64,000 bases of DNA from Bdellovibrionota bacterium (GTDB lineage Bacteria; Bdellovibrionota_C; UBA2361; JAAYZI01): contig JBMNIF010000002.1 in NCBI GenBank assembly GCA_050950765.1, positions 608,001-672,000 of the forward strand, written 5' to 3'. This document shows positions 12,305 through 24,821 of the stretch, piece after piece. The notes beneath the pieces were generated by a model that saw only the letters and a program-made list of their open reading frames with translations, did no database searches and was not told the origin of the DNA. The position numbers were made by a program, and so were the translations under genes. Position 1 is the first letter of the stretch, and every line of letters begins with the position of its first letter.

Positions 12305-13421
12305 CTAGGTTTCACTTCTTCTATTTTCGCTACTTAATAGATATTCTTCAATAAAAGCATCAAGGTCTCCGTCTAAAACCGCTTCTACTGAAGAGGTTTC
12401 GTAATTAGTGCGTAGGTCTTTTACCATTTTATAGGGGTGTAAGACGTAGCTTCTAATCTGATTGCCGAATTCAATCTTCTTTCTCTCTCCTTTTAGATCC
12501 GCCATCTTCTCTTCACGTTCCTGTTCTTGAAGTTCATAAAGCTTTGCCTTTAAGACCTTCATGGCAAAATCTTTATTCTTATGTTGAGAGCGTTCATTTT
12601 GACAGGAAGCTACTATTCCCGTTGGAAGGTGCGTTATCCTTACAGCAGACTCTGTCTTATTAACGTGTTGACCACCCGCACCTGAAGAACGGTAGGTATC
12701 TATCCTTAGATCCTTTTCATCTATCTCTAATTCTATGTCATCATCGATATCAGGAGTTACCGAAATAGAGGCAAAAGATGTGTGACGACGGGCATTTGAG
12801 TCAAAAGGGGAGATGCGCACCAAGCGGTGCACGCCCTGTTCTGATCTTAAAAAACCGTATGCAAAATCTCCTTTAATGTAGAGGCTGGCGTTTTTGATGC
12901 CCGCTTCCTCACCCGCTCTAAAATCGAGCTCTTCTACGGAAAACCCCTTCCGTTCTGCCCAACGAAGATACATGCGGTAAAGCATTAATGCCCAGTCCTG
13001 CGCTTCAGTCCCGCCGGAGCCACCGTTAACTTCGAGGATGGCGGCTTGAGGATCGTTCGGATTGTTCATCTTGCTTAAAAACTCTTGTCTTTTCAGCTTG
13101 TTAGCAAGGTCGCTAACTATTGAAACAGCTTCATTGAAAAAATCATCATCATTATCTTCTTCATATAAACTAAAAGCTGTGTGCGCTTCTTCCTGTAAAG
13201 AGAGGAGCTCATTAAAGGAGTTTATGCCGTTTTGATAACGAGAACGTTCCTTTAAGATAGCCTTAGCTTGATCGGCATCATTCCAGAAGTTTGGGTCTTG
13301 AGATTGCTCTTCCAGTTCATCTAATCTCTTCTGTTTATTGGGGATGTCAAAGAAACCCCCGTAAAGCTTCTATCTTTTCATCTAAGGAGGTTAATTGATT
13401 TCTAACTTCTGAAGGTTCCAT
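12305..13421 (-). CDS. prfB: Peptide chain release factor 2 with programmed +1 frameshift
   Basis: ATG at 13421 gives MEPSEVRNQLTSLDEKIEALRGFL, then CTT TGA C at 13352-13346 preceded by SD-like GGGGG; the +1 frame continues into the ORF containing the SPF and GGQ motifs. Confidence 0.96.
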
Positions 13422-14519: not shown

Positions 14520-15608
14520 ATGGTCATAAAGCGAATTTTTACTACATTTATTTTTACACTACTACTTTGCACGATATGTAGTGTTCAACTTTTTGCTGAA
14601 GAGCAACCTGCTAAGGTGAGTTATAGTGTGGTGCATAAGTTTGATCCAGATATACCGCCTCAAGGTATCGCCTTTTTTAATGATAAAACTTTACTTGTAG
14701 CGATCTCTCAACACTTTGGCGCTAACAATCGTGTAGGAAAGATCGGTATCGGAAGTTATGATAGCACTCCTTTTCCAAATAAGGAGTGGGGCAGGGCACC
14801 TAAAAGTGCAGGTGGGATCGGATTGTTTAACGTTGCACAGGTGCATATAGTCGATAATATTGCGTGGATCCTTGATCAGGCGGAAAAAGAGGGCGAGCCT
14901 GCTAAAATTTTAGGTTGGGATATCGTAAAGAATCGTTTTTATAGAGTTTTTTATATCTATCCTCCCGTACTGACACCAAAATCTCTTTTACACGATTTTG
15001 TTGTTGATAATTCAAAAAATGTAATTTTTATTACTGATGAGAGTGCAGCTCTTATCGTTCTTAATACTACGACAGGTCACTCCCGACGTGTTTTAGATCA
15101 GGACCGTTCAACTATTTCTCAAGATATTCCGCTAATTATAAACGGTAAAAGTGTGAAGCTAAACGGGAAGCCTTTCTTCGCAGGCGCTGCTCCACTTGCG
15201 CTTGATTTAAAAAAAGAGTGGCTTTACTTCGGAGCTTTTTCCGGACACGACCTATACCGCATTAAGGTTTCAGACCTTATTAACACGGATCTTTCAGGAA
15301 AAGACCTCTCTGCAAGGGTTGCTCATTTTGCAAAACGTCCTATTACGGGCAGCATTGTTTTTACTAAAAAAGGTAACATTGTTTTATCTGACGTAGCTGC
15401 AAGTGGCATCGGGATGATTTCAAAGGATAAGGTCTATAAAGTTTTGTTTAAAGATAACAAGAAGTTACAGTGGATAGAGGGGCTTTTAGAAAAAGATGAT
15501 GGCTTTATTTACGGTGTTTCCACTCAAAGGCAAGGTGCGCCTTCTTTTAATGATGGTGTTAATCGCTCAACTCCACCGTTTTTAATGATTAAATTTAAAG
15601 AAGAATAG
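14520..15608 (+). CDS. Secreted major royal jelly protein/yellow-family beta-propeller
   Basis: Signal peptide; WILD, HDFVVD, FITD, ALIVLNTTTGHSRRVL and WLYFG...LYRI patterns. Confidence 0.7.
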   Translation: MVIKRIFTTFIFTLLLCTICSVQLFAEEQPAKVSYSVVHKFDPDIPPQGIAFFNDKTLLVAISQHFGANNRVGKIGIGSYDSTPFPNKEWGRAPKSAGGIGLFNVAQVHIVDNIAWILDQAEKEGEPAKILGWDIVKNRFYRVFYIYPPVLTPKSLLHDFVVDNSKNVIFITDESAALIVLNTTTGHSRRVLDQDRSTISQDIPLIINGKSVKLNGKPFFAGAAPLALDLKKEWLYFGAFSGHDLYRIKVSDLINTDLSGKDLSARVAHFAKRPITGSIVFTKKGNIVLSDVAASGIGMISKDKVYKVLFKDNKKLQWIEGLLEKDDGFIYGVSTQRQGAPSFNDGVNRSTPPFLMIKFKEE

Positions 15609-15677
15609 GATTTCTATCGATAAGTACCACTTGTAGAGCGGGACTTAATTTTTAGCGGTTTAAAGTAGCGACCTAAA

Positions 15678-15945
15678 GATAGGGAGGAAAAGGGTTTTTT
15701 GCCTGTAACCACTCTTTGTAGCTGTAATGGGTAGTAAGTTATGACATATACTTTAAATTTCAGGGAGGAAAAGGGTTTTTATTTATAACTTTTTCTTTGT
15801 AGCTGTAATGGGTAGTAAGTTATGACATGAACTTGGAATTTCAGGGAGAAAAAAGGTTTTTGTCTGTAACCTTCTCTTTGTAGTTTTAAGGGGTAGTAAG
15901 TTATGACATATACTTTAAATTTCAGGGAGAAAAAAGGTTTTTGTC
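15678..15945. repeat. Tandem repeat, 81-bp unit, ~3.3 copies
   Basis: AGGGAG anchors at 15681, 15762, 15843 and 15924; GGGTAGTAAGTTATGACAT present in each full unit. Confidence 0.9.
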
Positions 15946-16046
15946 GATGATGGCTACTCTTTATAAAGCGTATCTGTGGTAAAATATACTGTCTTAAATG
16001 ATTAGGTTGGGGTAAGTTACTAATTGTTTTTATTGATGATTTTGTT

Positions 16047-17369
16047 ATGTCGCCTCCAGAGATCTTAATTGGGCTTATTATTTTAGGTGGTGGAATTTTT
16101 GCTTTCTTTGCTTATCGCAAATGGGTGAATGATGCCATCTCAAACAGGAGAGCGCGGGAGCAGGAGTATTTTGATAGAATTGCGGAGCAGGCTAGTGCCA
16201 TTCAAAAAAATGCTTCAATTAAACGTAGTAGTGGCGACTTTGAAGATAAGTTTAGTAGTGCGGGTTTTTCTACTTCGGCACCATACGGTGCGCCGTATGG
16301 TGATAGTTCAGAGCCTAAAGGTGCCTTTCAAGAGGGCGTTCCGTTTTCAGAGGAGCGCACTCCTCTCACAGGTGTGATTGAAGATGCACAGTTTTCTCCT
16401 TTAACAACACAAGCCATCTCATCACAAGTTGTAGCAGCGCAGGCGGGAGAAGGGATTTTCTCTGGAATTCGTACCTTACCGTGTGCTTGGGTGACTAATG
16501 CGCCTGAAAATTGGCCGGATGTTGATTTCTCAATGGCTAATCGATCCCTTCGTTGTGTTAATTCCTCTTTTTATAATGCGAAGTTGCTTGATACCTTTAT
16601 ATGTGCTGGTTGTGTAGAAGGTGAGTCTATCCTGACGTTACAGACAAAACTTACTAATTTAGGGGTTTTGGAGATCCCGTTACAAGTTTTTACGGATGGC
16701 GTTTTTAGATCTGTTTTTATCTACCCTGAGGCAGACCTTGAAGATGCCGCTCATTTTAGTGGTGTAAGAGATCTCTTTAAGGAGTTAGGAGAAGTTGAGC
16801 CAGTTTTTTATGCAGGAAAAGTTTTGCCGCCCTCACCTCCCGCTTCGGTTTGTCGTCCTTTAAAGCCACAAGATCTAAGTGTTTATAGGGGAGTTGTGCC
16901 AGCCGGAGATTACGGTATTTGGTGGGATACTTCTCAACAAGATGATAGCGCTATAAATATTTTGCGCGAAACATATACGTTAATGGATCGCATTGAAAGT
17001 TATATTGCCGGACTTCTTGTGTCAGAACTAGGACTTAGTGCCAATCAGGGATCTCGACGGATAGCGTTACCTGAAAAAAATTTTCAAGTTCCGCTTCTTG
17101 CATATCACGGAGCTATCGTTCTGATGACCCTTTCAGCAGCAAAAGGGATTAGGTTTCATTTTAATATGGCGCATACTACACCATTTTATCGAGATTGTTT
17201 TTTAGCTGCCTTTAGAGATTTCATTAAGTTATATCGTAACCAGATTGAAAGAGATAAGGCTCCGCTAGACCATGCTACAAGTAATTCACCTCTAGCGTGG
17301 TGGAGTAGTATGGAAGAGGCCTACCGTGAAGATTCTAAAAATATGGTGATAGGTAAGATATCTCTTTAA
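16047..17369 (+). CDS. Hypothetical membrane-anchored protein
   Basis: 440-aa ORF with one N-terminal TM helix; no family recognised. Confidence 0.75.
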   Translation: MSPPEILIGLIILGGGIFAFFAYRKWVNDAISNRRAREQEYFDRIAEQASAIQKNASIKRSSGDFEDKFSSAGFSTSAPYGAPYGDSSEPKGAFQEGVPFSEERTPLTGVIEDAQFSPLTTQAISSQVVAAQAGEGIFSGIRTLPCAWVTNAPENWPDVDFSMANRSLRCVNSSFYNAKLLDTFICAGCVEGESILTLQTKLTNLGVLEIPLQVFTDGVFRSVFIYPEADLEDAAHFSGVRDLFKELGEVEPVFYAGKVLPPSPPASVCRPLKPQDLSVYRGVVPAGDYGIWWDTSQQDDSAINILRETYTLMDRIESYIAGLLVSELGLSANQGSRRIALPEKNFQVPLLAYHGAIVLMTLSAAKGIRFHFNMAHTTPFYRDCFLAAFRDFIKLYRNQIERDKAPLDHATSNSPLAWWSSMEEAYREDSKNMVIGKISL

Positions 17370-17546
17370 AAACCGCATTTCTTACATATATTTAATATGC
17401 CCGACCTAGCTTTATCAGAAGCAAAGGTACCTCTTCTTACGATTTATTTGCGGATGAGCGTCCGATCGTATATCGGCGGTTCCTTTAAACTTTATGTTTT
17501 AAGGCATCCGTTTTTTACTTTAACTCCCTAACGGGAGTTCCCCTTA
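17265..17546 (+). repeat. 282-bp direct repeat, copy 1 (3' end of upstream gene plus cassette leader)
   Basis: Matches 19853-20134 with 3 substitutions by manual comparison. Confidence 0.95.
17411..17532 (+). ncRNA. Putative structured 5' leader element, cassette 1
   Basis: Conserved in all three units; GCGGATG/CATCCGT stem encloses two hairpins and is followed by T6. Confidence 0.55.
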
Positions 17547-17576
17547 ATTAAGATATATAGAAAGGTGGGCAGGAAA

Positions 17577-17963
17577 ATGCCCCAAGGAGAGAGCGGAAAA
17601 CGATCTGTTATCTTTTGCGCCGAAACTGGCAAAGAGTTGACCCCAGCGCAGTTGCAGATGTGGTATGCACTTACCTTGAAAGCAACTGAAGATTATTGTG
17701 GTGAGGTCATTACCCCTTTTAAAAGGAAAAAGAACGAGCTCGGCGAAACTGAGATTAATTTTGATACTCACATCCTTACCTTCAAGTGGCCCAAAGGGTA
17801 CCCGCCCTCGTCGCTCTATTGGGAGACTGGTGTGGGTGGTCGTTTGACTGTTTTCCTTACCGCCACTAATGATAAGGAGAACCGTTACTGGGAGCTCCGT
17901 TTCTTTGAAGAAACGGAGCGCGAAAGAGAGCTAAAAAACTTCCTCGCAAGTCTTGTCCAATGA
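17577..17963 (+). CDS. Cassette protein 1 (128 aa, unknown family, distant paralogue of cassette proteins 2 and 3)
   Basis: ATG at 17577 after a purine-rich RBS; occupies the same position between conserved flanks as the other two ORFs; the TGA stop is part of the conserved 3' element. Confidence 0.8.
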   Translation: MPQGESGKRSVIFCAETGKELTPAQLQMWYALTLKATEDYCGEVITPFKRKKNELGETEINFDTHILTFKWPKGYPPSSLYWETGVGGRLTVFLTATNDKENRYWELRFFEETERERELKNFLASLVQ

Positions 17964-18161
17964 CTCAAGCTCTGCAAGGTGCCTAAGATCTAAATGAAAG
18001 GGGAGGGGGCGTTCGCCAAAAGTAAAAACGGCTGCTACGGTTGCTTCGGAAGGTTCTTTCGATACTTATCGCGACGCTCACTCTCCTATTCTTAATAGAT
18101 CGATCTAGTATCTTTATCTCGGTGTTTTTATAAAACTAAGAGGGTATTACGTTTAAAAAAT
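17961..18161 (+). ncRNA. Putative structured 3' element, cassette 1
   Basis: ~200 nt conserved in all three units; long G-U-rich closing stem 17999-18012/18074-18087 around three hairpins. Confidence 0.55.
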
Positions 18162-18262
18162 ATCGCTTTAGATTAGCCGCCTACTAAAGTACGGTGCTTT
18201 TACGAGTCATCTTTTTTTCAAACTTGTTTCTCAATTTTTCATAATAATTGCTACGATCCGAT

Positions 18263-18384
18263 TTTATCAGAAGCAAAAGTATCTCTTCTTACGACTTATT
18301 TGCGGATGAGCGTCCGATCGTATATCGGCGGTTCCTTTAAACTTTATGTTTTAAGGCATCCGTTTTTTACTTTAACTCCCTAAC
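18263..18384 (+). ncRNA. Putative structured 5' leader element, cassette 2
   Basis: Near-identical to 17411-17532. Confidence 0.55.
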
Positions 18385-18417
18385 TTCCTTTGTAAGGATA
18401 GAATTTAGGAGCTTGAC

Positions 18418-18780
18418 ATGAGCCTCAAGGCTGGAACCATCCAATTGGATGGCGGCGACCGTGCGAAATCTCTCTGTCAAAACTTTATCAGCAGAGGCGG
18501 GGGGGATTGCAAACAACACACGAGGTCTGACAAAGGAGATGAATTTCATTTCGACGATCGTAAAGTTTGTTACCCCACCGATCGTTGGCCCAGAAAAGTA
18601 GAGTACACGGGCGCAGTGGTTAGTTGGATGATCGAGGAAGATGTTTTGACAATCTTCGTTTTTGTCATCACGGATACCGAAGACATCCCTACTACTGTCA
18701 ACGAAGAAAATTGTCACTGCACGGCGACGTTCAACGATCCAGAAGTCGTGAAAAAGTTCTTGGCAGAGTTTTGCAACTGA
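18418..18780 (+). CDS. Cassette protein 2 (120 aa, unknown family)
   Basis: AGGAG RBS before the ATG; shares Y-x-G-A-x-V-x-W...LT and DPEV..K.L.EFCN with cassette protein 3. Confidence 0.85.
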   Translation: MSLKAGTIQLDGGDRAKSLCQNFISRGGGDCKQHTRSDKGDEFHFDDRKVCYPTDRWPRKVEYTGAVVSWMIEEDVLTIFVFVITDTEDIPTTVNEENCHCTATFNDPEVVKKFLAEFCN

Positions 18781-19083
18781 CTCAAGCTCTGCAAGGTGCT
18801 TAAGGTTCGAATGAAAGGGGAGGGGGCGTACGCCAAAAGTAAAAAACGGCTGCTACGGTTGTTTCGGAAGGTTCTTTCGATACTTATCGCGACGCTCACT
18901 CTCCTATTCTTAATAGATCGATCTAGTATCTTTATTTTGGTGTTTTTATAAAACTAAGAGGGTATTACGTTTAAAAAATCACCTCTTTTTATTAAACTAA
19001 GTTATTAAATAGTTTAAATGCAAGCTTTAAAAAGAGTTTAAAAAGAGAGACTAAACGTTTTAAGAAGATAAAAATAATCGTAA
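18778..19083 (+). repeat. 3' element of cassette 2 (structured part plus AT-rich tail shared with cassette 3)
   Basis: Near-identical to 20581-20886; the first ~200 nt also match 17961-18161. Confidence 0.93.
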
Positions 19084-19093
19084 AAAAGATTAA

Positions 19094-19658
19094 CTAAAAA
19101 GCGCCACCCCCCAACTTTGATCCACCGTTGGATCTGCCGCCATTAAAGGTTCTATTTGAAAAGCTTGAGCTTTGAGTGGGAGTAGTCTCTTTTTGAGTCT
19201 GTTGTTGCGGAGTCCAAGTGTTTTGTAAACGGATCTTTATCTTTGGTGCAGAAGCGTCATATCTGTGATTATTAGTGCGGTCAGCTATCTTCACTCCTTG
19301 ATGCGGATTATAGCCCATGCCACGACTAAGGACATCGATCTTACCGGTACTACTATAACCGTCATTATGTGCGCCATATCTATTAGCTATCTCGTCTTTG
19401 TAAGCGACACTATTTTTTTGACTGTATTTTTCATATAGAGAGGCAGCGTCACCATCATTTACAGTTGAGCCTACACTGTTAAAGTTTGAAGAGTAAGTTT
19501 GATAACACTTTTGTTGATACTCGTCAGCTTCGCGCTGGAACCGTTCTTTCTCTGCTTTTTGAGCTTTCTCTCTTTTTTATCTGTTGAGCCTTTACCTTTC
19601 TTTGAGCTCTTTCAGCATCATAAGTAGCTTGTATTTTTTCCCAAAATTCATCACCCAT
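19094..19658 (-). pseudogene. Frameshifted hypothetical gene (~187 codons if repaired)
   Basis: AAAGGT RBS and ATG at 19658 give MGDEFWEKIQATYDAERAQRKVKAQQIKK; the frame breaks in the A6-(GA)n tract near 19565-19580; the alternative frame (EKAQKAEKERFQREADEYQQKCY...) stays open to the stop at 19094. Confidence 0.65.
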
Positions 19659-19852
19659 AGAATAACCTTTTTAAAAAAGCTCCCCTTCTCTAGTTGACTA
19701 TTAATATAATCGAAGAGATCTCACGATCTGATTCAAGTTAAAATATAAAAAGCTCTCCTGTAAATTTATCCATTAACTGCTAGGGAGTTGGAAAGAGCGC
19801 TAAGCTTGGAGCTAGAAAGAAAAAAGTATATCCTTTAGCTAGAACCTTTTCA

Positions 19853-20134
19853 CTAGACCATGCTACAAGCAATTCACCTCTAGCGTGGTGGAGTAGTATG
19901 GAAGAGGCCTACCGTGAAGATTCTAAAAATATGGTGATAGGTAAGATATCTCTTTAAAAACCGCATTTCTTACATATATTTAATATGCCCGACCTAGCTT
20001 TATCAGAAGCAAAGGTACCTCTTCTTACGATTTATTTGCGGATGAGCGTCCGATCGTATATCGGCGGTTCTTTTAGACTTTATGTTTTAAGGCATCCGTT
20101 TTTTACTTTAACTCCCTAACGGGAGTTCCCCTTA
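19853..20134 (+). repeat. 282-bp direct repeat, copy 2 (includes the 5' leader of cassette 3 at 19999-20120)
   Basis: Matches 17265-17546 at offset 2588. Confidence 0.95.
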
Positions 20135-20163
20135 TAAGGATAGAATTTAGGAGGGCAGATATT

Positions 20164-20583
20164 ATGTCTGCTAATAAATCTGGAGCTAGTGGCGGAAACA
20201 CACCCAGCTACAACCCTGGAGAGATAGAAACCGGTATGATCCATTTCTTTCCGAAGGAACGAGATCGGATGCTTGACATACTCTTCGGCGAAAAAGCGTA
20301 TCTTAACGACTTGCGCGGAAAGAAAGCTGATAAAAACGGTTACTCCGTGTACGCCTCTGTTCGTTGTCCCTTGCGCGAAGAAATGGACTTATACGAAGGC
20401 GCAATGGTTTTTTGGAAGCGTGAGAAGAGTCGTTTGACAGAAATATCCATTTACATCATCAGAGAGGGTGATGATGGAAACACCTTGCAGAACGTTATCG
20501 ATGGTCGAATCGGTGATGATATCACGGTGATAGTCAAGGATCCAGAAGTCGGGGAAAAGCTCTTGGAAGAGTTTTGCAACTGA
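20164..20583 (+). CDS. Cassette protein 3 (139 aa, unknown family)
   Basis: AGGAGG RBS before the ATG; homologous to cassette protein 2. Confidence 0.85.
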   Translation: MSANKSGASGGNTPSYNPGEIETGMIHFFPKERDRMLDILFGEKAYLNDLRGKKADKNGYSVYASVRCPLREEMDLYEGAMVFWKREKSRLTEISIYIIREGDDGNTLQNVIDGRIGDDITVIVKDPEVGEKLLEEFCN

Positions 20584-20886
20584 CTCAAGCTCTGCAAGGT
20601 GCCTAAGGTCTAAATGAAAGGGGAGGGGGCGTATGCCAAAAGTAAAAAACGGCTGCTACGGTTGTTGCGGAAGGTTCTTTCGATACTTATCGCGACGCTC
20701 ACTCTCCTATTCTTAATAGATCGATCTAGTATCTTTATCTCGGTGTTTTTATAAAACTAAGAGGGTATTACGTTTTTAAAAATCCCCTCTTTTATTAAAC
20801 CAAGTTATTAAATAGTTTAAATGCAAAGTTTAAAAAGAGTTTAAAAAGAGAGACTAAACGTTTTAAGAAGATAAAAATAATCGTAA
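20581..20886 (+). repeat. 3' element of cassette 3
   Basis: Near-identical to 18778-19083. Confidence 0.93.
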
Positions 20887-20975
20887 GTAAAAAAGAAGAG
20901 AACTTTTCTATTGCCACTCACTTAAAAGCGCTTAACTAACATACGTAAAAGTAAAAAAAATTAGGTTAAAAGTAC

Positions 20976-21034
20976 AAAAAAACGGACTAAATCTTCCTAC
21001 TCTCTTTCTGAAGGGTGTTTTAGTCCGTTTTTTT
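20976..21034. terminator. Bidirectional terminator-like inverted repeat downstream of ilvE
   Basis: AAAAAAACGGACTAAA ... TTTAGTCCGTTTTTTT. Confidence 0.7.
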
Positions 21035-21085
21035 AGAGATATTTAAGTAAAAATATTTAATAAGACGTAGTAATTAATTTTTACA

Positions 21086-21988
21086 TCAATTTACGTACGC
21101 TAACCACTTCTGGTATTTCGGATTTTTACCGGAAGTTATTTCAGAGAAGCCCTCTTTAAACTTCGTTGTAATGGGACCGATCTTACCAGCACCTAAGATA
21201 TGATCATCAATAGATCGTATCGGTGTAATTTCAGCTGCCGTTCCGGAATAGAAAGCTTCGTCTGCCTTAAAGGCATCTTCTGGCAGAATCTCCCTCTCTT
21301 CAACAGCAATGCCCCAGTCGTTAGCTAACTGAATAACGGTGTCACGAGTAATGCCAGCTAAGATATTGCCTAATTTAGGGGTAAGAAGTTTGCCGTCTTT
21401 AACAATAAAAACATTCTCACCAGGACCTTCTGCTAAGAAGCCGTGCTCATCAAGAAGTAACCCTTCATGATATTTCGTTCCTTGCAACTCTTTTGCTGCT
21501 AACATACCGTTTACGTAGTGTCCTGCCACTTTAGCATCAGCTACTACCGCACGTGGGCTAAGTTTAATAAGGGATACGATCTTCACATCAACCATATCGT
21601 GCGGAAGATAAGCACCCCACGGCCAACACGAGATAGAGACATCAACAGGTGCACCTTGCGGGAAGACAGACATCACACCATAACCGTAATGCACCAACGG
21701 TCTGATATAACAAGCCTCGATATCGTTCTTTTTGAGCAGCTCTTTAGTCGCCGTCATGACCTCTTCTTTAGTATACGGAATTTTAAAGCCGAGTGCGTCG
21801 GCAGAGTAAAAGAGGCGGTCAATATGCTCCTTCAGTCGAAAGATAGCCCCACCATTAGGAGTTTTATAAGCACGAATGCCTTCAAAAACTGCGCTACCAT
21901 AATGAAGAGAATGCGAAACGATATGAATCTTTGCATCTTCCCATAAAACGAATTGCCCATTTAACCAGATATATTTTGTAGTTTCCAT
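21086..21988 (-). CDS. ilvE: Branched-chain amino acid aminotransferase
   Basis: HSLHYGSAVFEGIRAY, AKVAGHY, EGPGEN, LAGITR and GTAAEITP motifs. Confidence 0.96.
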   Translation of the reverse strand: METTKYIWLNGQFVLWEDAKIHIVSHSLHYGSAVFEGIRAYKTPNGGAIFRLKEHIDRLFYSADALGFKIPYTKEEVMTATKELLKKNDIEACYIRPLVHYGYGVMSVFPQGAPVDVSISCWPWGAYLPHDMVDVKIVSLIKLSPRAVVADAKVAGHYVNGMLAAKELQGTKYHEGLLLDEHGFLAEGPGENVFIVKDGKLLTPKLGNILAGITRDTVIQLANDWGIAVEEREILPEDAFKADEAFYSGTAAEITPIRSIDDHILGAGKIGPITTKFKEGFSEITSGKNPKYQKWLAYVN

Positions 21989-22277
21989 AACCTGAATTTA
22001 TCCTTATAAAAAAACAGCTGCAAGATAATTTTGCATAAGTAATCTTTTTTAACTTTTATATTTTTATACTAACTTATTATCTATACCGTAACCGTACATT
22101 AAGGAAAATCTCTTAGGCATCATCTGCACAGAAAAAGAGGGCGAAAATTGCAGATAATTATCTAAAATAATTTATATTTTTTACCTTTAAAAAAAATTAC
22201 ATTGTTTGCGGAAAATGAAGATTTTAGCTATACTGCAACAGTTTTGAGGTTCAACTTTTCCATGCTTAACCGTCTGA

Positions 22278-24821
<2,544 letters not shown>

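Follow-up and report, generated by a model that had tools for sequence, protein, structure and literature searches.

A 64,000-nt stretch of the chromosome of a Bdellovibrionota bacterium (contig JBMNIF010000002.1, positions 608,001 to 672,000; hereafter the window) contains an array of three small genes that combine almost invariant non-coding surroundings with strongly divergent coding sequences. The array lies at C2:625265-628890 of the 2.64-Mb genome (5 contigs, 94% complete). We consider it probable, though by no means settled, that this is a lineage-restricted hypervariable paralogue array: a set of separately transcribed units in which concertedly evolving flanks act as homology arms around diversifying open reading frames (ORFs), the products of which are possibly immunity-like or inhibitor-like binders.

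Three units with near-identical flanks and divergent ORFs

The three units (A, B and C) have one layout in common, consisting of a promoter-like site, a 5' leader with a conserved core, an ORF, and a 3' element that starts at the stop codon. The features of the locus are listed below (SD, Shine-Dalgarno sequence; MFE, minimum free energy).

17265..17410, + strand: 3' end of the 440-aa gene (16047-17369) and promoter-like site; duplicated at 19853-19998, 99%
17411..17576, + strand: unit A 5' leader, core 17411-17532 followed by a variable stretch; SD-like AAGGTGG
17577..17963, + strand: ORF1, 128 aa, orphan
17961..18160, + strand: unit A 3' element, long imperfect hairpin, shortened (blastn, MFE fold)
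18217..18245, + strand: unit B promoter-like site (promoter scan); sequence unrelated to the A and C sites
18263..18417, + strand: unit B 5' leader, core 18263-18384; SD AGGAG
18418..18780, + strand: ORF2, 120 aa, family member
18778..19083, + strand: unit B 3' element, with long hairpin, terminator-like hairpin and AT-rich extension
19094..19660, - strand: low-complexity gene between units B and C, outside the repeat; frameshift at an A-run
19853..19998, + strand: duplicated end of the 440-aa gene (its last 34 codons) and unit C promoter-like site (19953-19980)
19999..20163, + strand: unit C 5' leader, core 19999-20120; mosaic
20164..20583, + strand: ORF3, 139 aa; confident alpha/beta model
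20581..20886, + strand: unit C 3' element, with long hairpin, terminator-like hairpin and AT-rich extension

The positions that an earlier note, made from the sequence alone, had assigned to the three 5' elements, ORFs and 3' elements all held in the repeat search and the alignments. The repeat search recovered the 5' element at 17411-17532, 18263-18384 and 19999-20120, with each copy 98% identical to the reference copy, and placed the 3' element in register at 17902/18720/20523. It also returned a 282-nt repeat, 17265-17546, that is 99% identical to 19853-20134. In pairwise global alignments, 117-120 of the 122 positions of the 5' core (96-98%) and 187-189 of the 196-197 aligned positions of the ~197-nt 3' core (95-96%) were identical, whereas the DNA of ORF1-3 reached a pairwise identity of just 59-60%. 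This is barely above the 56-57% of codon-shuffled ORF controls (z 2.2 for A-B, 2.2 for A-C and 4.5 for B-C), and the B-C signal sits wholly in the C-terminal part (z 7.3 versus -1.5). The differences between the ORFs comprise indels and all base types. The contrast between near-identical flanks and barely alignable ORFs that the note had drawn is therefore borne out.

Conservation had also been described as switching on sharply at the stop codon. A 22-nt string across the stop-codon junction is indeed invariant in 3/3 copies, and this part of the description stands; it needs refinement for B versus C, where the final 61 nt of the ORF are already 85% identical. From there the B-C homology on the 3' side extends over ~303 nt, reaching 19083/20886. 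Units A and C share 146 extra upstream nt (99.3%, blastn), including the last 34 codons of the 440-aa gene.

The coding sequences differ between strains

Parts of the stretch are contained in 24 public sequencing runs, none of them listed as an RNA run, and 7 runs from 6 studies contain 83-94% of the sampled words, compared with 16-29% in many others. Contigs of the runs X3, X8, X10 and X17 were placed on 16000-21500 at 80% likeness. For X10 and X17, lack of cover was taken to mean absence only if a contig bridged the gap or continued into sequence unlike the window. X3 represents the same strain, with 17/18 contigs at least 99% alike and no listed differences, while the neighbour genes of X8, X10 and X17 differ from the window by about 0.5-3% (21/1295, 11/829 and 13/644 in X8; 12/471 and 5/614 in X10; 11/519, 2/247 and 3/546 in X17). 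That the array is an assembly artefact, made of collapsed or chimeric repeats, or that its ORFs are spurious, is hardly credible to us. The repeats do exceed the word length of short reads, and in all four runs the contigs end at them, but the high word content in runs from six separate studies, the unaltered contigs of X3, the position of the window on a 1.25-Mb contig and the confident ORF3 model described below all argue against such an origin.

The stretch 17656-17839 inside ORF1 is uncovered in X8, X10 and X17. One X8 contig joins the leader (to 17520) directly to 18432, and over ORF2 and the first 81 nt of the 3' element it differs by 40 substitutions and 7 gap letters in 430 nt (~9%), a divergence of ORF2 that is ~5 times that of the neighbours. 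In X10 and X17, contigs coming from leader C depart from the window at 20182 with a loose end that encodes the start of a protein of the P0008 type (database relatives are introduced in the next section), and contigs with a P0005-type C-terminus rejoin the window at 17941, the ORF1 end, and then enter the 3' element. In X17 this 3' element, joined from 17987 to 18808, leads on into the extension of the B type, in which the contig reaches 19036. An allele of the P0002 type is 11% diverged over 20145-20320 and then unlike the window in X17; in X10 it is 5% diverged over 20365-20622, with unlike sequence before. The leader depth in X10 and X17 is about twice the single-copy level. We read the X10 and X17 strains as having two units, the first slot with a P0008-like ORF that replaces ORF1 and ORF2, and the second with a mosaic ORF3 allele. 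A variant that copies and strains have in common is 20018 C>T, which is the B-type base.

These observations agree with the expectation of the earlier note that the cargo would differ across strains, given that X8, X10 and X17 have no ORF1 cover and present other ORFs behind the same leader. That note had counted it against its own proposal if relatives carried the same three ORFs at ordinary divergence. This is not what X8, X10 and X17 revealed, which means that the locus is truly unusual.

ORF2, ORF3 and their database relatives form one mosaic family

At the protein level, ORF2 and ORF3 are 36% identical across 78 aa (E 1e-9). Word-based searches of 5.8 billion protein clusters returned only the queries themselves and P0002, which has 76% identity to ORF3. 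A profile search of 1.84 billion representatives gave 5 proteins at E <= 0.001, namely ORF3, ORF2, P0005 (146 aa, E 4e-21) and the long repeat proteins P0006 and P0007. The latter two come from unrelated sources, and 7 and 4 of their repeats, respectively, match a strand-turn-strand motif of ~40 residues within the family profile; this match probably reflects a common beta-sandwich motif and not homology.

The cluster of P0005 has two further members, P0008 and P0009. P0002 corresponds to ORF3 over the N-terminal 16 residues and the C-terminal 70, and its middle segment is that of P0005. The C-terminus of P0005 resembles that of ORF1, albeit weakly (E 0.075 for a single comparison). Reading in another frame, P0009 overruns the usual end and crosses the conserved 3' junction. 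It ends in ...LTQALQGA, exactly as does the out-of-frame window ORF 18624-18803, which indicates that in another organism this 3' element lies behind a different ORF. Judged by these alignments, ORF2, ORF3 and all database relatives (P0002, P0005, P0008 and P0009) constitute one mosaic orphan family. The idea of unrelated ORFs as cargo was thus not upheld.

For ORF3, an AlphaFold2 model built from a 7-sequence alignment gave a confident alpha/beta fold (predicted local distance difference test, pLDDT, 82.2; predicted template modelling score, pTM, 0.75) in the order strand-helix-four strands-helix-strand-helix, with disordered N-terminal residues 1-19. Foldseek searches with this model returned nothing at E <= 0.001 from either the PDB or BFVD, and the best of 48161 chains compared by VIA-align was a designed protein at Z 5.0, without a clear neighbour. 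The best E value of a sequence-profile search of the PDB was 0.051, and an Atlas search with ORF3 gave nothing usable. When all 7 family members were compared with Pfam and NCBIfam at E <= 1, three chance-level rows and no immunity family were obtained. None of the ORF1-3 proteins has a signal peptide. We take ORF1-3 to be real genes, because each is predicted to have an SD at proper spacing, the frames stay open in diverged relatives, and the ORF3 model is confident.

The array is confined to one locus

Searches for further flank copies in the genome (blastn at word size 9; tblastn; nhmmer --max, best other E 0.24) found none, and both the flanks and the ORF family are confined to this locus within the genome. 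Occurrence of the flanks at this locus only, which blastn and nhmmer --max agree on, had been named beforehand by the earlier note as a finding that would speak against a new system. Among related genomes, 0/60 were matched by DNA and 0/90 other genomes of the order by the family profile; these relatives are distant, and one alone belongs to the same family. Exact-pattern scans for the 22-nt 3' junction in metagenome contigs and for a 24-nt piece of the 5' core in genome contigs gave 0 matches each, and a protein-pattern scan of metagenome contigs gave 185 stretches of which 0 were confirmed, with the proviso for all three scans that the own genome and near relatives may be excluded from the collections. 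The best ilvE-like match across 4 relatives had 58% identity, and a synteny comparison with relatives was impossible.

The note had reported that no reverse transcriptase or integrase gene is in the window. This holds and can be extended: no reverse transcriptase (PF00078, RVT_1) was found in the entire genome by a search that was positive in 3/14 control genomes, and all three tyrosine recombinase matches (PF00589) lie outside the window, at C2:471421, C2:1062602 and C3:312627, the nearest of them 153 kb from the locus. Pfam was run on 20 of the 44 window ORFs of at least 150 aa, and no scan was aimed at transposases. The type VI secretion sheath (PF05943) and RHS repeats (PF05593) had 0 genome matches each; the TLC family had 0 as well, in a search whose control matched nowhere either. 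ComEC is present, which says little since it is widespread.

These results bear on the possibility of site-specific cassette exchange, as in integrons or rAID-1, in which the flanks would be recombination sites and the recombinase would be encoded elsewhere. Repetitive intergenic DNA around small GC-skewed ORFs is known from rAID-1 (10.1101/471110, in the sections describing the arrays), and cargo that varies between strains would also suit such a system. Yet the closest of the three Phage_integrase matches is far from the array and the window holds none of them, the rest of the genome is devoid of flank copies, the boundaries are ragged with breakpoints within ORFs, the cargo is one family and not a collection of unrelated genes, and units B and C are separated by an opposite-strand gene and a copied gene end. 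We regard this explanation as very improbable.

Predicted transcripts and RNA structure of the flanks

A promoter scan placed promoter-like hexamer pairs at 17365-17392 (A), 18217-18245 (B) and 19953-19980 (C); in unit A the -35 box would be at 17365-17370 and the -10 box at 17387-17392. The conserved core starts 17-18 nt past the -10 box in both contexts, though the sequence upstream in unit B is unrelated. Such a constant distance in two unrelated contexts fits a core that begins near the predicted transcript start.

The leaders would be ~155-166 nt long. After the core they contain a short variable stretch with a good SD (AAGGTGG, AGGAG or AGGAGG), and this stretch is itself mosaic, since A and C have one part in common while B and C have 25 nt around the SD in common. 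Accordingly, the unit C leader is A-like to about 20134 and B-like over the SD region 20129-20153. The unit B leader is without 6 nt (GGGAGT) that are present in A and C. Within the leaders there is a 25-codon upstream ORF (17455-17532, 18307-18384 and 20043-20120), and with its stop codon the homology among all three copies ends. Copy C differs from copy A at two positions, one synonymous and one K-to-R. This upstream ORF has no SD, and an X8 contig has a 1-nt deletion within it (20099).

From the stop codon onward, the 3' element can form a long imperfect hairpin (MFE -55.6 kcal/mol, z -2.18, with 6/200 shuffles folding as well); the opposite strand has a fold z-score of -1.33 and the 5' element one of -1.36 versus shuffles. 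The 'structured' flanks of the earlier note thus received modest support only. In MFE folds, terminator-like hairpins followed by U tracts appear at ~18957-18987 (B) and ~20759-20791 (C), and an AT-rich extension of ~110 nt downstream is common to B and C. The homology of unit A stops inside the loop of the terminator-like hairpin retained by B and C, so that transcription from unit A may continue into B. The 3' elements of B (18811-18951) and C (20614-20754) also contain an open, membrane-like frame of 46 codons. In A this frame is shifted, and X8 contigs have 1-nt deletions within it, at 17995 and 18841. The 46-aa peptide was dropped as a gene candidate on account of these frameshifts.

One could suppose that the flanks are cis-regulatory RNAs held by purifying selection alone, with the ORFs being old, fast paralogues and recombination playing no role. 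The start of the core roughly at the expected (predicted) transcript start is in keeping with this, as is the + strand of the 3' element folding somewhat better than shuffles. So is the finding that 5/12 variable paired columns of the 3' hairpin (28, 30, 32, 54 and 159) still pair via G-U-compatible changes, three near-identical copies being too few for a covariation test. However, selection on an RNA cannot explain 99% identity over a copied gene fragment or over the AT-rich extension of B and C, no Rfam family matched 15000-22000 at E <= 1, the 5' element folds little better than its shuffles, and copies and strains share variants such as 20018 C>T. We consider this explanation unlikely.

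Base composition of the ORFs

As the earlier note had estimated by spot counts, the ORFs are GC-richer than their surroundings, with 45.7-47.4% GC compared with a mean of 41.1% in 1000 long ORFs of the genome. The effect is stronger at third codon positions: the GC content there (GC3) is 0.51, 0.54 and 0.50 for ORF1, ORF2 and ORF3, respectively, versus 0.347 +/- 0.044 in the 1000 long ORFs. Just 0.17-0.67% of 20000 length-matched windows (130 codons) reach such values. GC-biased conversion, foreign origin and a local mutational bias are each possible causes.

Repeated capture of ORFs from GC-richer foreign donors into an existing expression frame would account for this skew directly. Neither the profile search nor the word search disclosed a donor, though, and close relatives have the same flanks or the same mosaic pieces. 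This makes foreign donors a rather unlikely source, slightly more so than selection on the flanks alone.

Homologous recombination as the proposed mechanism

Point mutation alone cannot make flanks diverge 10-fold slower than the ORFs between them, which leaves homogenisation of the flanks or exchange of the ORFs, and both require recombination that ends near the ORF borders. We infer that this exchange is homologous and not site-specific from the ragged ends of pairwise homology (A and C match for 146 nt upstream into the copied gene end; B and C over the final 61 nt of the ORF and the ~110-nt downstream extension), the mosaic unit C leader, the variants common to copies and strains, the allele breakpoints inside ORFs, and the copied gene fragment upstream of unit C, which is without function there. 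The same ragged ends and breakpoints, together with the restriction of the flanks to one locus, speak against the mobile or RNA-mediated unit that the earlier note had proposed. What remains of its interpretation is a fixed non-coding frame with changing cargo and no reverse transcriptase or tyrosine recombinase nearby; the new mobile system does not remain.

In the hypervariable paralogue array that we favour, each unit would be its own transcription unit, with a promoter-like site, a leader with an SD, a cytoplasmic alpha/beta protein of 120-139 aa and a 3' untranslated region of ~200-300 nt, which would carry the long hairpin and in B and C also a terminator-like hairpin. Gene conversion and unequal crossover among units would keep the non-coding frames near-identical. 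The same frames would double as homology arms by which whole ORFs or segments are replaced between units or strains via ordinary homologous recombination. The coding parts may then be old alleles of one family that have diverged strongly and that diversifying or frequency-dependent selection keeps apart. The layout of the units, their confinement to one locus, the one mosaic family and the changes among strains are shown by the data; recombination as the mechanism, this selection, and the points where transcripts start and end are inferred.

Several observations weigh against this model or parts of it. The high GC3 of the ORFs is not accounted for by simple conversion, since the flanks are AT-rich. 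ORF1 has no significant similarity to ORF2 or ORF3 in BLASTP (hhalign probability 0.2), its single-sequence model is poor (pLDDT 48.7) and unfit for fold comparison, and ORF1 is at most a candidate member of the family. Pfam, NCBIfam, PHROGs and PADLOC gave nothing significant for the family, and with it no partner, toxin or phage link. A language-model search with ORF1 found unnamed clusters nearest (score 0.90), followed by lower neighbours in which Imm52 labels 16% of the members (score 0.84) or TsiV 38% (0.80). These labels are the sole hint at immunity and constitute a lead below the tool's reliability bar. The promoter scan was overall not enriched (9 sites versus 7.3 +/- 2.9 in shuffles), the terminator-like hairpins of B and C are missing from the list of that scan and visible in MFE folds alone, and the promoters, leaders and terminators are predictions from sequence. 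In the strain comparison, the short Logan contigs break at repeats, so the slot order was deduced from how contigs join and where they end loosely, and a pair of variants within one run could derive from two strains.

As to function, our guess, which we hold to be doubtful, is a binder that neutralises a variable partner, for example a protein of the immunity or inhibitor type. Such a role in the cytoplasm would fit the fast change of the proteins and their build, a small alpha/beta domain with a disordered N-terminus and no signal peptide. Somewhat more doubtful still is the extended notion of a recombinase-free chromosomal cassette library, in which the pair of long untranslated regions would supply both the expression signals and portable homology arms, thereby reshuffling versions of a new small alpha/beta protein that neutralises a variable enemy molecule. 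In such a library, the population of an uncultured, possibly predatory bacterium would retain many versions of the protein. The enemy could be a toxin or a protein of a phage or of prey, and further diversity might come from a process, limited by the frames, that is GC-biased or locally mutagenic.

Neighbouring genes

The array is surrounded by housekeeping genes (the atp operon, parAB, bactofilin, prfB, gyrB, secA and proS). The 440-aa protein encoded directly upstream (16047-17369) has an N-terminal membrane helix, no Pfam family and an ordinary divergence rate between strains; 0/90 other genomes of the order were matched by it. Between an MRJP-like gene and the 440-aa gene, at 15681-15942, a non-coding unit of 81 nt is repeated in tandem in at least 3 copies with 82-84% identity. 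The low-complexity gene at 19094-19660 (- strand) lies in two frames split at an A-run, and contigs show gap letters in this stretch (3 in X8, 27-48 in X10 and 38 in X17). Gene decay to a pseudogene, phase variation or a homopolymer error could each account for this. The release-factor ORF at 12305-13069 (- strand) aligns to the PCRF profile from position 95 onward only, an offset which we would expect if it is prfB and its N-terminal part is in another frame joined by a programmed frameshift. GyrB (22371-24821, 816 aa) has 48-62% identity to the best 80 of 602 relatives, which come from many phyla, in a search of 185,579 species genomes; such low identity to the best relatives indicates that the lineage is deep-branching and poorly sampled.

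Comparison with known systems

The array works most like two known systems, one of which is the PeSL (promoter-early stem-loop) regulatory cassettes of T4-type phages. According to the passages on these cassettes in Arbiol et al. (2010, PMC2839356), near-identical promoter/terminator motifs flank small ORFans in hyperplastic regions, and inter-motif recombination is credited with the insertion, deletion and replacement of ORFans between close relatives. The present array resembles these descriptions in having near-identical, putatively regulatory flanks around small orphan genes that vary among close relatives. Measured against their combination of promoter and terminator, promoter-like sites and the terminator-like hairpins of B and C are predicted here, and the promoter of unit B is not part of the conserved sequence. 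The array differs from the PeSLs, as portrayed there, in its location on a bacterial chromosome among housekeeping genes, in its 3 copies at one locus versus ~50 per phage genome (PMC2839356), in its longer conserved parts (a 122-166-nt leader and a 200-300-nt trailer), and in cargo that belongs to one family.

The other system is that of the Neisseria minimal mobile elements (Saunders and Snyder 2002, as summarised in PMC1797815), sites at which alternative genes occupy a syntenic position and for which homologous recombination suffices. Alternative ORFs behind the same leader, in strains whose neighbour genes are 0.5-3% apart, make the present locus similar. In the summarised cases, however, neighbouring genes supply the arms, and genes with no relation to one another alternate between them (PMC1797815), whereas here the arms would be dedicated, tandemly repeated non-coding frames and the alternatives diverged members of one family.

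The rAID-1 orphan-immunity arrays of Bacteroidales (Ross et al., 10.1101/471110) are characterised, in the part of that report describing them, by small genes, repetitive intergenic DNA, skewed GC and apparent active gene gain. Repetitive intergenic sequences and skewed GC are found here as well. Unlike those arrays, the present one has no XerD-family recombinase at its head (the nearest PF00589 match being 153 kb off), no ORF that matches a known immunity family, and 3 genes of one family versus up to 31.

Integrons have an IntI-type tyrosine recombinase, attI and Pc beside the array, whereas here the nearest tyrosine recombinase match of any type (PF00589) is 153 kb from the locus. The spacers also differ from attC sites, imperfect inverted repeats that alone separate promoterless cassettes, in being composites of the 3' element, unique DNA or an opposite-strand gene, a promoter-like site and a leader, with 0 inverted pairs of at least 25 nt. 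A diversity-generating retroelement, with its reverse transcriptase, template repeat and variable repeat, is not indicated either, given the genome without reverse transcriptase matches and ORF differences that include indels and all base types. Nor does the locus look like a type I toxin-antitoxin system, in which the gene for a small hydrophobic peptide is conserved: the candidate frame of 46 codons is frameshifted in A and has deletions in X8.

In multigene families for antigens or contingency functions, such as those of the pilE/pilS and vls/msp2 types, concerted evolution goes along with diversifying gene conversion: conserved blocks flank hypervariable segments, and segmental conversion yields mosaic alleles. 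Their conserved blocks are coding, and one expression site is accompanied by silent copies, which in the pilE/pilS type are partial and promoterless. Unlike in pilE/pilS-type families, all three copies described here are complete ORFs with an SD and a promoter-like site, the whole ORF is variable, and the proteins are without a signal peptide.

A literature search did not find this arrangement described in a bacterial chromosome or in Bdellovibrionota, which is no proof of absence. The principle is known for phage ORFans (the PeSLs) and for Neisseria islands, and it is the dedicated tandem array in a bacterial chromosome that was not found in the literature searched. With three copies at one locus, this is not a genome-wide system, and it opens no long-standing question. 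Our reading is that of a recombination-driven hypervariable locus with a protein family that has no further detectable relatives or clear structural neighbour. Since this family changes ~5 times faster than its neighbours between strains, it is a place to seek an arms-race interface in an uncultured wastewater bacterium. If the reading is true, the locus would be a clean bacterial case of regulatory sequences that double as recombination arms for one hypervariable family.

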